Source: a virus (taxonomy: Duplodnaviria > Heunggongvirae > Uroviricota > Caudoviricetes). Taken from it: a DNA stretch of 8,933 bases. Shown in pieces: positions 2,809-4,586 of the stretch. The DNA lies in IMG/VR virus record IMGVR_UViG_2703718803_000022; one strand, 5' to 3'. The notes below the pieces were generated by a model, which was not told the DNA's origin, did no database searches, and worked only from the letters and a program-made list of their open reading frames with translations. Position 1 is the stretch's first letter. Each line of letters opens with the position of its first letter. Both the position numbers and the translations under genes were made by a program.

Positions 2809-3212
2809 GCAAGATTGACTATCAGGCACTGCGTGAAGCGGCAGAGAAAGCCGGTGAAGATAAGTGGCAGGCTAAAAAAATAAATGGTGATTTTTTCGTT
2901 ATTCGTCACGGTAGTTATACAAGACAGCATGGCTACACATCGTATCAACCCATTGCGGAGATTGATTGTAAGCCAGTCCGGGATTTTGTTGCCAAGGCTA
3001 ATCCGGCTACCGTGCTGGAATTACTGGATGAACTGGAAGCAGCAAAAAAGCGCATTGCAGAACTGGAAGCGCGGGAAATACTGCTCCCGGAACGTAGCAG
3101 CATGCTTCATCGAACAGATTTTCACGATGATTACCAAACGGTAATGGCATACAAAGTTTCTGAAGTCATCGATGCAATCCGCGCTACTGGCATTCGCATC
3201 AAAGGAGAGTGA
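2805..3212 (+). CDS. Ea22-like (ead/Ea22 family) protein
   Basis: GTG start 6 nt after a strong AAAGGAGG at 2791-2798. N-terminus [21 protein letters not shown] and a coiled-coil segment LLDELEAAKKRIAELEARE match my recollection of ead/Ea22-like prophage proteins. C-terminus ...GIRIKGE. Confidence 0.65.
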   Translation: MSKIDYQALREAAEKAGEDKWQAKKINGDFFVIRHGSYTRQHGYTSYQPIAEIDCKPVRDFVAKANPATVLELLDELEAAKKRIAELEAREILLPERSSMLHRTDFHDDYQTVMAYKVSEVIDAIRATGIRIKGE

Positions 3213-3213
3213 G

Positions 3214-3405
3214 ATGAACGGACAAATCTCAATTGTTCGACCAGGAGCATGTGACGATAGCGAGATACACATGATTATTCGTCTGGCGAGGGGGAAAACA
3301 ATAACTGTTCTCACTACTCCAGAAAATCTCGCATTAGCATTAACAGGAAAGTCAGACCTGCCAGTAGAGCTAAAGCTGCGAAATGTTGAGATTAAGGTGA
3401 AATAG
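3214..3405 (+). CDS. Hypothetical small protein (63 aa)
   Basis: ATG 3214 preceded by AAAGGAGAG (the stop of the upstream gene lies in the spacer). Ends 2 nt before the next start. Confidence 0.55.
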   Translation: MNGQISIVRPGACDDSEIHMIIRLARGKTITVLTTPENLALALTGKSDLPVELKLRNVEIKVK

Positions 3406-3407
3406 CT

Positions 3408-3866
3408 ATGACCACTTTTACCAAAGATCGACTGCTGACAATCCAGCATTGGCGCGAAACATACGGACCGGGTAGCAACGTTGTGCTTCCAGCAGAAGAA
3501 GCGGAAGAGCTGGCACGGATTGCGCTGGCATCACTGGCAGCAGAGCCAGTTATGTTCTGTATATCAGGACAAAATGTAGATTCAGAAGAACATGTATCAA
3601 CCAGCAAAGCGGTTGTTGATGCCTGGGTTGAAGAATGGAATCAGGTTGACGGAAGTCCTGGCGAACCACTGTACAAAACTATGCCACTCTACTGTCACGC
3701 TGCCTTACCAGCGCCGGTAGTGCCTGAAGGACTGGTTAAAGCGGTGCGTTTTTATGAGCAGGTAAAAAATGAGAATCCGCCAGTTGGGACTGGTGCGTGG
3801 AAAGACGCTGTTGACTGGGTGCTCGAAGAGGCTTGCCAGGCTGTAAATACAGACATCAAAGGATGA
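3408..3866 (+). CDS. Modular phage protein, paralog A: conserved about 47-aa N-terminal module with a unique C-terminal domain
   Basis: AAGGTGA RBS 7 nt upstream. N-terminus MTTFTKDRLLTIQHWRETYGPGSNVVLPAEEAEELARIALASLAAEPV is near-identical to that of the gene at 4583; the C-terminal 105 aa are unrelated to it. Confidence 0.7.
   Translation: MTTFTKDRLLTIQHWRETYGPGSNVVLPAEEAEELARIALASLAAEPVMFCISGQNVDSEEHVSTSKAVVDAWVEEWNQVDGSPGEPLYKTMPLYCHAALPAPVVPEGLVKAVRFYEQVKNENPPVGTGAWKDAVDWVLEEACQAVNTDIKG
3429..3532 (+). repeat. Direct repeat copy 1: 104-bp stretch identical to 4604-4707 (similarity extends over 3408-3550)
   Basis: Base-by-base comparison of the two gene starts. Perfect identity 3429-3532 vs 4604-4707 at an offset of 1175 bp; about 6 mismatches across the 143-bp similar region. 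Confidence 0.9.
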
Positions 3867-3871
3867 ACGAT

Positions 3872-4069
3872 ATGGCAACCAACAATCGTAAAGCCAAGAT
3901 GCTAATTTCCCGTGTATACAGACTTTGCTACCCCAGCCAGTGGTTGAGAGTTAGCAATCGCCGTGTGGTGTTGTTCTCATTTTCTGGAATTGCCAGAGAG
4001 GGAGTCAAAGATAAGCGCAGCGCGGCGCAAAACCGCTGGAAAAAACATTTGCGCACTAAAGGAGAGTGA
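3872..4069 (+). CDS. Hypothetical small basic protein (65 aa); coding status uncertain
   Basis: ATG 3872 with AAGGA about 9 nt upstream (alternative in-frame ATG at 3863 in ATGA overlap with the upstream stop). Exactly fills the gap before the next gene. Composition rich in R/S/W/C is atypical, so this may instead be an untranslated spacer. Confidence 0.35.
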   Translation: MATNNRKAKMLISRVYRLCYPSQWLRVSNRRVVLFSFSGIAREGVKDKRSAAQNRWKKHLRTKGE

Positions 4070-4070
4070 T

Positions 4071-4586
4071 ATGGCGTTAACACACCGCGAACTCTGTCAG
4101 ATTGCGTACAAGTTCCTTAAGCGCAACGGGTTCAAGGTTTGTTTTCATGACCGCTTTATAGCTGTAACCAGTACCGGAGAACAGCCAGATGCTATGGGGT
4201 TCAGAAATTCAGCATCATGCCTGATAGAGGCGAAGTGTTCTCGTGCTGACTTGTTGGCAGATAGAAATAAGCGTTTCCGTAAAAATCCCTCACTTGGCAT
4301 GGGCGACTGGCGATTCTTTATTAGTGAGCCGGGAATTATTTCAGTTGAGGATTTACCTCCCGGCTGGGGATTACTTCACGTTGTTAACGGAAGAGTACGG
4401 AAAGTACATGGGTGGCCCAAGGGTAATTGCTGTTGGGGTAATCCTGACGATAAGCCATTTACTGGAAATAAGCAGGTTGAATGCGATTACATGTTATCTG
4501 CATTAAGGCGCATGGAGTTGAGAGGGCACCTTAATGAAATATATGACGGTGTAATTGTTAATAAGAAAGAAGGAAACGCGGCATGA
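4071..4586 (+). CDS. PD-(D/E)XK nuclease-like protein (restriction-endonuclease fold, possibly VRR-NUC-like)
   Basis: 171 aa. Strong RBS AAAGGAGAG 6 nt upstream. N-terminal helix, then hydrophobic strands, then ...GEQPD(40)AMGF...ASCLIE(53)AK(55): a canonical PD-x13-ExK arrangement. Family assignment is by motif only. Confidence 0.6.
   Translation: MALTHRELCQIAYKFLKRNGFKVCFHDRFIAVTSTGEQPDAMGFRNSASCLIEAKCSRADLLADRNKRFRKNPSLGMGDWRFFISEPGIISVEDLPPGWGLLHVVNGRVRKVHGWPKGNCCWGNPDDKPFTGNKQVECDYMLSALRRMELRGHLNEIYDGVIVNKKEGNAA

Follow-up and report, generated by a model that had tools for sequence, protein, structure and literature searches.

A conserved stop-start linker between accessory genes of lambda/P22/HK620-type phages, with a probable part in expression and gene exchange

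Short boundary ('linker') sequences in lambdoid phages are said to have been proposed by Susskind and Botstein in 1978 as part of the modular theory, and such boundary sequences, delimiting large functional modules, were reportedly found in phage HK620 by Clark et al. in 2001 (J Mol Biol 311:657). The linker concept is therefore already known. Since 1978, two accounts of phage mosaicism have been in dispute: homologous recombination at short conserved linkers, and illegitimate joining at random with selection acting afterwards. At translationally coupled operon junctions, the stop codon lies near the next start and the Shine-Dalgarno sequence lies in the last codons of the upstream gene. The field largely favours illegitimate joining, since few mosaic joints show linkers (PMC3029335). 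According to PMC2327257 (citing Clark et al. 2001) and PMC3029335, lambdoid exchange at short conserved flanking sequences is an accepted mechanism that is rarely documented; RecET recombines homologies of 5–13 bp at about 1e-8 (PMC2327257).

Two further systems and one protein feature are close to the locus described here. PeSL cassettes of T4-type phages consist of a sigma-70 early promoter and a stem-loop terminator, repeated between non-essential genes of a hyperplastic region; recombination between copies leads to gene insertion, deletion and replacement, and mini-circles were shown for this exchange (Arbiol et al. 2010, PMC2839356; Comeau et al. 2014, PMC4122927). The start-associated sequences (SAS) of Cluster K mycobacteriophages carry AGGAG 3–7 bp upstream of start codons, sometimes including the upstream stop, and only in the non-structural genome half (Pope et al. 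2011, PMC3203893). Although their C-terminal domains are unrelated, Ea22 proteins share the ending K/R-G-E in all cases, and the significance of this ending was called unknown (Dydecka et al. 2020, PMC7093339), and Ea22-like proteins are mosaics with unrelated C-terminal modules (PMC10834534).

The window, meaning the whole stretch of 8,933 nt that was analysed, was 99.9–100% identical to Stx1a phages integrated at wrbA and is the exo-xis/ea region of one such prophage. Its gene order was that of the HK620 early-left operon, and the module at 423-2007 was laid out like HK620 hkaL-hkaK-hkaJ. None of the cassette genes received a name from NCBIfam. The features of the locus were as follows.

423..2007, + strand: recombination module of the same operon, with Sak4-like ATPase, SSB and Abc2 (PF13479, PF11043, phrog_743)
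2805..3212, + strand: Ead/Ea22-like gene, 135 aa (Pfam PF13935, E = 1.5e-18); its final codons are linker copy 1
3189..3216, + strand: long 'type I' linker GGCATTCGCATC-AAAGGAGAGTGA-G-ATG, comprising the tail G-I-R-I-K-G-E-stop of the Ea22-like gene, AAGGAG, the spacer and the start of 3214-3405
3201..3212, + strand: 12-mer core copy 1, AAA GGA GAG TGA, read as K G E stop
3213..4069, + strand: 857-bp three-gene segment between the direct 12-mer copies, absent from some relatives
3214..3405, + strand: 63-aa cassette gene, homologue of HK620 hkaF (phrog_1222), downstream of copy 1
3408..3866, + strand: 152-aa cassette gene; its first 143 nt are repeat D1 and it ends in the degenerate linker
3855..3874, + strand: degenerate linker ATCAAAGGATGAACGATATG, with the tail I-K-G-stop of 3408-3866, 5 nt, then the ATG of 3872-4069
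3872..4069, + strand: 65-aa cassette gene (phrog_1380); its final codons are linker copy 2
4052..4073, + strand: 'type II' linker CGCACT-AAAGGAGAGTGA-T-ATG, with the tail L-R-T-K-G-E-stop of 3872-4069 and the start of 4071-4586
4058..4069, + strand: 12-mer core copy 2; homology breakpoints are commonest at its first base
4071..4586, + strand: 171-aa cassette gene, downstream of copy 2

The 12-mer AAAGGAGAGTGA occurred exactly twice in the window (3201-3212 and 4058-4069, both on the + strand), as a first-pass annotation of the sequence had claimed. In each copy, the bases end one gene (K-G-E-stop as its final codons), serve as ribosome-binding site for the following gene and are set off from its ATG by a 1-nt spacer. 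At both copies the TGA was the stop of the upstream ORF, the ATG followed 1 nt later, and AAGGAG lay within the upstream ORF, 6 nt before the ATG. Similarity around the copies extended to 19 of 22 bases between CGCAtcAAAGGAGAGTGAgATG (3195-3216) and CGCActAAAGGAGAGTGAtATG (4052-4073; repeat family D13). The related form announced near 3857-3866 was likewise found, as ATCAAAGGATGA at 3855-3866. This variant also occurs elsewhere behind the canonical upstream half CATTCGCATC, as CATTCGCATCAAAGGATGAACGATAT, and we therefore regard the degenerate form as a derivative of the same junction; relatives of gene 3408-3866 (L113, L116) end with the canonical ...GGCATCAAAGGAGAGTGA. The KGE or KG endings described for three consecutive proteins were present, on three of four consecutive genes (KGE for 2805-3212 and 3872-4069, KG for 3408-3866, with KGE in relatives of the latter), but the three do not all adjoin, since the intervening 3214-3405 ends in IKVK. 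The conserved stretch at the junction ran from about −24 to +16 relative to the start of the 12-mer. One copy was carried by 256 loci, two by 44 and three by 3. Over 50 kb of prophage, two exact copies and one degenerate copy were found, confined to the ea region.

The repeat of the 12-mer within the window is not significant on its own. An expectation of 0.00 holds for that particular 12-mer and not for any repeated 12-mer; in first-order Markov simulations, 8.9-kb windows contained a mean of 3.6 repeated 12-mers, and 95% of them contained at least one. Four further independent repeats, 12 to 15 nt long, were present in the window itself. Two things go beyond chance: the register, which is the same at both copies (stop, 1-nt spacer, ATG), and, more than anything, the comparison with other loci.

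Like the lambdoid boundary sequences, the linker was short, lay at a gene boundary between non-homologous flanks and carried mosaic breakpoints, and HK620 itself has it at hkaG/hkaF. Unlike those sequences, which reportedly delimit large modules, it parts single small accessory genes and lies within coding sequence, where it also acts as ribosome-binding site, stop and start. With PeSL it shares a repeated expression signal between non-essential genes of a hyperplastic region, and deletion (L020/L032), permutation (L116) and neighbour replacement were found here too; PeSL, however, is transcriptional and intergenic, whereas the linker is translational, partly coding and without a stem-loop. 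With SAS it shares asymmetry and AGGAG shortly before the ATG of unrelated genes, which is a resemblance only, as sequence and host clade differ. SAS are also many per genome and were interpreted as signals for translation and not as sites of recombination, whereas the linker is present in 1–3 copies per genome with documented reassortment. The layout matched that of a coupled junction (stop 1 nt from the start, Shine-Dalgarno sequence in the end of the upstream ORF), but ordinary coupled junctions are neither identical between unrelated gene pairs nor shared by genomes with different neighbours. An integron-type cassette system was rejected, as there was no attC-like inverted repeat, no stable structure and no IntI-type integrase. 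Among the phage papers searched, none contained the literal 12-mer or 'IRIKGE'.

The linker is a sequence of 16 to about 40 nt of the exo-xis ('ea') accessory region in lambda/P22/HK620-type phages, and we consider it probable that this is a conserved intercistronic linker with the 12-mer as its invariant core, serving both expression and gene exchange. For expression, the upstream frame reads K-G-E-stop, and within the same bases AAGGAG, 6 nt ahead of an ATG that comes 1 nt after the stop, is a canonical Shine-Dalgarno sequence. Any gene placed downstream would therefore receive a strong start, and ribosomes ending the upstream gene would be released beside the next one. For exchange, the same bases occur in many unrelated cassettes, so that crossover inside the linker would be possible between co-resident lambdoid genomes or between copies in one genome, and each product would automatically be in frame, rightly terminated and rightly initiated. 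Allelic exchange would reshuffle neighbouring genes, and unequal exchange between two copies would add, delete or reorder cassettes. Such exchange may proceed by short-homology recombination through host RecA or phage annealing proteins (Sak4, Red-beta or Erf type), for which the module at 423-2007 is a candidate catalyst. Translation may be coupled across the linker. Judged from the junction sequence, coupling through the 12-mer is plausible; RNA structure sequestering the initiation site did not exceed shuffled controls at the two junctions (z = 0.25 and −0.47), and independent initiation at the strong site is therefore equally possible.

Among 5426 complete E. coli genomes, 1121 carried the longer form, GGCATTCGCATC plus the 12-mer (as a 36-mer spanning it), with as many as 5 sites per genome. 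This form was also present at HK620 hkaG/hkaF, and it persists as a relic after lambda ea22, where the downstream ATG has become ATC. The type I stretch of 24+ nt was found behind seven different unrelated C-terminal modules, one of them an XF1762-family protein; as GGCATTCGCATC plays no part in ribosome binding, its sharing is non-functional identity. Synonymous positions in GGC ATT CGC ATC AAA GGA GAG were almost invariant across modules. In more distant relatives, positions 8-9 varied (AAAGGAG-AC/CC/AT/GG-TGA), and P22 eaD kept the tail G-I-K-V-K-G-E with different codons. The 12-mer core is mostly under functional constraint (Shine-Dalgarno sequence, TGA, ATG), and the drift at positions 8-9 together with the P22 eaD codons indicates that part of the conservation is due to selection and not to exchange. 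A host range based on a genomic-contig scan was discarded: 37 of 38 matches aligned to phage lambda, and about 33 of these were near-identical lambda DNA, for the most part contaminants among the contigs of unrelated species.

An IMG/VR scan for AAAGGAGAGTGANATG returned at least 120 contigs (L001-L120), which were selected on the pattern itself and stem from redundant prophage sets. Reassortment of the flanks was observed: among the IMG/VR matches listed, 71 occurrences joined at least 9 upstream C-terminal modules to at least 13 downstream gene families in at least 34 combinations and formed one network with a cycle rank of 13. All four combinations of (U0, U1) with (D0, D2) existed. Most of these 'upstream families' belonged to a single mosaic protein family, Ea22-like, as alternative C-terminal modules. 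The flanks were non-homologous among carrier genomes, as with lambdoid boundary sequences. In related prophages the 12-mer was located, as the first-pass annotation had suggested checking, at the gene boundaries of many different pairs of genes. Unrelated phages, whose flanks were unrelated too, accounted for 54 of the 125 IMG/VR occurrences among the matches listed, so independent origins of the 16-mer occur as well.

The same pattern was obtained with 80 loci chosen by gene 4071-4586 only, without reference to the linker. All 80 carried the junction (77 exactly, 3 with one mismatch), always with 1 nt between stop and ATG. Upstream of it stood 11 different modules, all in frame with the linker stop, and 79 of the 80 loci had a long in-frame upstream ORF, where random joins would give about one third. 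The context was type II in 39 loci and type I in 41. On its downstream side, which is an ATGA overlap, the gene was always followed by one superfamily. Alleles of gene 4071-4586 showed no association with the upstream context: identity was 98.64% between the two contexts and 98.73% within them, and two alleles identical over 516 nt were observed behind both. Among loci selected on gene 3214-3405 (n = 80), the exact 12-mer was present in 64 of 79 readable upstream junctions, with 9 upstream flank types. Loci selected on gene 3872-4069 (n = 45) had the junction AAAGGAG-NN-TGATATG, followed by 8 downstream flank types. Neighbour diversity (inverse Simpson) was 3.3–7.3 at five of six linker sides measured and 1.6 at the sixth (n = 8), compared with 1.0–3.9 at other sides.

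Homology breakpoints were observed at the edges of the 12-mer. In the 80 loci selected on the downstream gene 4071-4586, 41 HSPs started exactly at 4058, the first base of copy 2, and no other genuine single-base breakpoint was as frequent in these loci, whose choice did not depend on the linker; a larger count of HSP starts at 3408 stems from the duplicated 143-nt repeat (D1). Around copy 1, HSPs to related contigs ended at 3207-3217, and in a megablast of window positions 2750-4650 against phages, H59-H63 started at query position 1309, that is, window 4058. Two relatives (L032 and L020) corresponded to the window minus 3217-4051, a precise deletion in which 3060-3216 abuts 4052-4858 with a 22-nt overlap that is the linker. 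A third (L116) had the reversed gene order, with the C-terminus of the 3408-3866 gene, a canonical linker and then the 63-aa gene. A role of the 12-mer as a conserved boundary between exchangeable gene modules had been put forward from the sequence alone, with the coincidence of mosaic breakpoints as its test. This coincidence was found, and the varied gene pairs, the breakpoints at 4058 and the L020/L032 deletion support reading the 12-mer as a likely recombination joint.

Bases immediately 5' of the 12-mer went with the upstream module and the spacer base with the downstream gene, which confines type I x type II crossovers to 12–18 nt. The minimal efficient pairing length for RecA pathways is reportedly roughly 25 nt (Shen and Huang, 1986), and type I x type II events would, being shorter, be rare microhomology events. 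Many other breakpoints of the region fell inside genes; there are several joints besides the linker, and longer repeats, the 143-nt D1 among them, clearly serve as well. Homogenisation between the copies of one genome was not seen, and concerted evolution of linker copies was rejected, as variant copies stood beside canonical ones without co-variation. The comparative pattern would fit crossing-over in the linker or selection favouring such joints, and it is no proof of the former.

The strongest rival, which we consider unlikely, is functional constraint only: the junction would be a very good ribosome-binding site overlapping a stop, illegitimate joins would occur anywhere, selection would keep those at gene boundaries, and each gene would bring its own initiation region. 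Shine-Dalgarno sequence, stop and start indeed explain most of the 16 specified bases, the drift at positions 8-9 in distant relatives and the independent origin of the 54 unrelated occurrences (among the matches listed) agree with it, and most mosaic joints in phages are generally attributed to illegitimate recombination (PMC3029335, PMC2327257). However, the identical 12-mer precedes at least 13 unrelated downstream families and is therefore not private to one gene, and the 12 upstream bases GGCATTCGCATC, despite having no initiation role, are common to unrelated modules. The in-frame position of 11 of 11 upstream modules and the invariant 1-nt spacing (80/80) also speak against it, and the 22-nt overlap of the deletion variant is typical of homology-mediated exchange.

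A protein-level motif, by which the G-I-R-I-K-G-E tail would be needed by the proteins (e.g. as an interaction or stability tag) and the nucleotide identity would be a by-product, appears improbable. The conservation of K/R-G-E at the end of every Ea22 protein (PMC7093339) would suit such a motif, as would the retention of ...GIKVKGE with other codons in P22 EaD and of the tail in lambda ea22 though the downstream ATG was lost. The P22 case does not discriminate between the readings, because K-G-E codons are inherently Shine-Dalgarno-like. Against the motif, the same tail ends unrelated proteins (the 65-aa product of 3872-4069, the XF1762-family protein and the 3408-3866 family), the ATG followed after exactly 1 nt in 127 of 127 exact 12-mers examined, with lambda ea22 (ATC) as the sole exception seen, and the synonymous positions of the tail were almost invariant between modules. 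The linker reading, by contrast, explains the '+GE' tail as the in-frame translation of AAA GGA GAG TGA; it is the same feature as the Ea22 tripeptide at the protein level, found here also on non-Ea22 proteins.

It is very improbable that a dedicated trans-acting system recognises the linker, be it a site-specific recombinase (integron-like), a nuclease, or a translational regulator or small RNA co-regulating the cassettes. The linker is asymmetric, has a single orientation and is tightly placed at starts, which recalls the start-associated sequences of mycobacteriophages, where a trans factor had been considered (PMC3203893). It has, however, neither dyad symmetry nor significant structure and merely 1–3 copies per genome. 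No complement of at least 9 nt occurred elsewhere in 50 kb of prophage, on which ground an antisense or trans-acting RNA was also rejected, and the only recombinase nearby was the wrbA-specific phage integrase, which has an arm-binding domain and lies beside an excisionase at the wrbA junction. Chance recurrence is a negligible explanation even though a window of this size is expected to hold repeated 12-mers, since both copies share the stop/start register and the same junction was found in hundreds of related loci; it was dropped on these comparative data and not on the window data.

Beyond the probable dual role of the linker, a stronger reading is possible but doubtful: the K-G-E-stop linker could be a standardised plug-in joint of 16–40 nt, kept at least partly for the swap, gain, loss or reordering of cassettes between co-resident prophages at appreciable rates. 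This would make it a defined, experimentally tractable case of the Botstein linker hypothesis and the Ea22 '+GE' tail a feature of nucleic acid, not of protein. The linker is concrete and very common (about a fifth of complete E. coli genomes), with natural recombinants, a precise deletion and a crossover interval of 12–40 nt, and its role in exchange is directly testable by recoding, e.g. to AAGGGTGAATAA with the Shine-Dalgarno sequence retained. The finding also gives an account of how Shiga-toxin phages reshuffle the accessory genes that neighbour their recombination and integration genes.

A programmed +1 frameshift at GAG-UGA that would fuse neighbouring proteins was considered as well: the downstream ORF lies in the +1 frame, and the stop has a Shine-Dalgarno sequence ahead of it, an arrangement also found in prfB. 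The frameshift was judged unlikely by inference: the Shine-Dalgarno-to-stop distance is 2 nt and not 6, and tRNA-Glu would be unable to re-pair on AGU. The first-pass annotation had further assigned ATGA or GTGA overlaps to most other junctions in 423-6665. Such 4-nt overlaps were present at about half of them (5 of 11, one with an uncertain start), and the remaining junctions comprised two overlaps (8 and 13 nt) and four gaps (2 to 35 nt).

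The 12-mer AAAGGAGAGTGA occurred exactly twice in the window, at 3201-3212 and 4058-4069. As the first-pass annotation had described, both copies were read by the upstream gene (2805-3212 and 3872-4069, respectively) as K-G-E-stop, with the ATG of the next gene (3214-3405 and 4071-4586) one base later; this junction is termed the linker here. The likeness of the two copies reached 19 of 22 bases. The related form ATCAAAGGATGA at 3855-3866 was indeed a derivative of the same junction, since GGCATCAAAGGAGAGTGA is the ending found in relatives of gene 3408-3866 and the variant also follows the canonical upstream half. 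Three of four consecutive proteins ended in KGE or KG, not three in succession as had been stated, and ATGA or GTGA overlaps, thought to form most of the other junctions, were found at only 5 of 11. Within the window alone, the recurrence was not significant (simulated windows averaged 3.6 repeated 12-mers).

The left arm of wrbA-integrated Stx1a-converting phages (LC744189-91) was 99.9–100% identical to the 8.9-kb window. In lambdoid phages this region is called 'exo-xis' or 'ea', and the stretch that starts with the Sak4-like gene and finishes with the DUF551-domain gene had the same gene order as hkaL to hkaE in phage HK620. The early-left operon was located on the plus strand, and the window contained the following features:

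1-219, minus strand, end of an IS3-family insertion sequence
423-1103, plus strand, Sak4-like ATPase (PF13479)
1100-1687, plus strand, SSB (phrog_743)
1711-2007, plus strand, Abc2 (PF11043)
2018-2182, plus strand, DUF2737 gene
2179-6665, plus strand, series of small accessory genes, including the next three
2805-3212, plus strand, Ead/Ea22-like gene
4583-5494, plus strand, DUF551 protein gene
5487-5642, plus strand, lambda orf63 homologue (DUF1382)
after the accessory genes, excisionase-like gene, integrase and wrbA 3' part

The insertion sequence, with an HTH_Tnp_1 match in a 55-aa minus-strand ORF (165 down to 1), lay directly upstream of a small ORF (226-414) and the Sak4-like gene, and may cut the operon off from its pL promoter; homology to the Stx1a phage records began only at 220. 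Between gene 6414-6665 and the excisionase-like gene, a GC-rich hairpin with a T run (CAACCGCCTTCGGGCGGTTTTTTC, 6667-6690) looked like an intrinsic terminator. ORF 8355-8933 consisted of phage-end sequence fused to the wrbA 3' part. The LC744189 record has an annotated insertion duplication (its positions 365-371), which corresponded approximately to window 8380-8386.

The repeated junction is a real feature, and its role as a recombination joint was supported. Eighty contigs were taken solely for encoding gene 4071-4586, without reference to the linker, and all 80 had the junction (77 exact, three with one mismatch), bearing out its proposed recurrence at gene boundaries of related prophages. 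Eleven different upstream modules (C-terminal parts of the preceding gene) stood before gene 4071-4586 at these loci, and in 79 of them a long upstream reading frame running into the linker stop was found; the gene's 3' end was always followed, through an ATGA overlap, by one superfamily with a common N-terminal domain. Contigs selected on gene 3214-3405 contained the exact 12-mer in 64 of 79 cases, with nine upstream and four downstream flank types, and those selected on gene 3872-4069 had the junction AAAGGAG-NN-TGATATG followed by eight downstream types. Neighbour diversity (inverse Simpson) was 3.3–7.3 at five of six linker sides measured and 1.6 at the sixth (n = 8); at non-linker sides across the operon it was 1.0–3.9.

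A scan of IMG/VR for AAAGGAGAGTGANATG yielded at least 120 contigs with a match. Every listed occurrence in the enterobacterial network joined a long ORF ending in ...KGE-stop to a downstream ORF that began at the ATG. Clustering used the 60 residues preceding the tail (upstream) and the N-terminal 60 residues on the downstream side; among the matches listed, it gave nine upstream modules and 13 downstream families in 34 combinations, forming one connected network with a cycle rank of 13. Two upstream and two downstream types were found in all four combinations among these matches, which for two-state markers requires exchange between them. Mosaic Ea22-like proteins, through their alternative C-terminal modules, accounted for most of the upstream 'families'; an XF1762-family protein and the 65-aa product of 3872-4069 were the exceptions. 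The remaining 54 occurrences among the matches listed were singletons in unrelated phages; thus, the 16-mer can also originate independently as a good ribosome-binding site with stop and start.

Shine-Dalgarno, stop and start account for much of the conservation of the core (AAGGAG 6 nt and the stop 1 nt before the ATG). Common descent is best supported by the upstream half, which is non-functional, and by the reassortment pattern. The placement of AAGGAG and the stop would favour strong initiation and possibly termination-reinitiation. Since no RNA structure masking the start was found at the junctions, translational coupling is not 'forced', as had been suggested.

The proposed coincidence of mosaic breakpoints with the linker was confirmed: with the window as the query against the gene 4071-4586 set, 41 alignments started exactly at 4058, and others stopped at 3207-3217. 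Many breakpoints in the region were intragenic. Directly 5' of the 12-mer, seven modules had GGCATTCGCATC, the 3872-4069 family had TTGCGCACT and a third family had ATGCTTCAKGGN. These bases co-travelled with the upstream module and the spacer base with the downstream gene, so exchanges between the GGCATTCGCATC and TTGCGCACT contexts were limited to 12–18 common bases. Allele identity of gene 4071-4586 was 98.64% between upstream contexts versus 98.73% within them, and two alleles were identical across all 516 nt behind both contexts, indicating that exchange was recent and frequent relative to mutation. On this pattern, co-resident lambdoid genomes would cross over within the common 12–40 nt, by an enzymology that we infer; the operon carries its own Sak4-like annealing protein with an SSB, plus Abc2, and short or diverged homology is tolerated by phage annealing systems (PMC2327257). 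Products of a linker crossover would always be in frame and correctly punctuated, and unequal exchange between linker copies would alter gene content.

Two linker-matching contigs (L020 and L032) equalled the window minus 3217-4051, and the 22-nt overlap of their two alignments was the linker. In a third (L116), two cassettes were in reverse order with a canonical linker between them. No homogenisation of linker copies within a genome was seen. A 143-nt direct repeat (D1; 3408-3550 and 4583-4725, 96% identical) encoded N-termini (MTTFTKDRLLTIQHWRETYGPGSNV...ELARIALASL) common to two different genes. The 1175 bp separating the D1 copies were exactly the difference between P13374 (O104:H4 outbreak Stx2a phage) and the window here, so D1, too, is a recombination joint, an example of the use of repeats longer than the linker. 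P13374 also contained an additional segment of approximately 2.1 kb, with genes for an antirepressor (antB), a methylase and a regulatory protein. It sat precisely at the overlap of genes 4583-5494 and 5487-5642 (5487-5507), where the flanking alignments overlapped by 9 nt (5499-5507).

A 36-mer spanning the long form (type I linker, 3189-3216) was present in 1121 of 5426 complete E. coli genomes, at no more than five places each and nearly always between an 'ead/Ea22-like' gene and a variable neighbour. Over 50 kb of this prophage, only the ea region contained the junction. HK620 had one copy (hkaG/hkaF) and P22 none; P22 EaD nonetheless ends in ...GIKVKGE, with different codons. Core positions 8-9 drifted in distant relatives. 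Lambda ea22 (L242) has the full long form at its end (lambda 29847-29870), with the next ATG changed to ATC, and this linker seems to be a relic joint that a deletion left behind. Approximately 190 nt without an annotated gene separate it from ea8.5, and at this place two relatives (L037 and L095) carry an ORF of 7 codons. Among 38 species-representative genomes with the 22-mer (L204-L241), 37 aligned to lambda around it. About 33 of these 37 contigs were near-identical phage lambda DNA (including 48.4–48.5-kb contigs and ~1-kb scraps in Streptomyces, Prevotella, Bacillus, Shewanella and other assemblies), almost certainly lambda contamination.

The linker is a well-documented case of a concept already known. 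Exchange at shared boundary sequences is an idea reportedly put forward by Susskind and Botstein and by Clark et al. 2001. No paper containing the linker sequence was found in the literature searched, Clark et al. 2001 lying outside that search. Exchange at such sequences has been cited as a real, seldom documented mechanism (PMC2327257, PMC3029335). The closest functional analogue of the linker is the PeSLs of T4-like phages (PMC2839356), and the closest at the sequence level is the start-associated sequences of mycobacteriophages (PMC3203893). Dydecka et al. reported that '+GE' ends all Ea22 proteins and termed its significance unknown (PMC7093339); this ending is explained by the linker.

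A second conserved joint was observed on the 5' side of genes (3392-3427 and 4573-4602). Many unrelated downstream genes start with ATGACCACTATTACCAAAGA (M-T-T-I-T-K...), after AAGGTGAAATAGCT or after GGAAACGCGGC with an ATGA overlap, and this joint appears to be the equivalent of the KGE linker at gene starts. In the stretch 2784-2851, the GTGA junction at 2805 (CGCAAAGGAGGCAACCAGTGAGCAAGATTGACTATCAGGCA) was independently conserved in many phages that are unrelated in other respects, Salmonella and mEp-type phages among them; the protein upstream of it ends in RKGGNQ, the Shine-Dalgarno again being read as K-G-G. Gene 5678-6049 contained four tandem copies of the 9-nt repeat CAGTGCAGC (D4, 5871-5906), encoding (VQP)4. 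The 15-mer CTGGATGAACTGGAA (L-D-E-L-E) occurred in two different genes (3024-3038 and 5589-5603), which may reflect chance or a coiled-coil segment in common.
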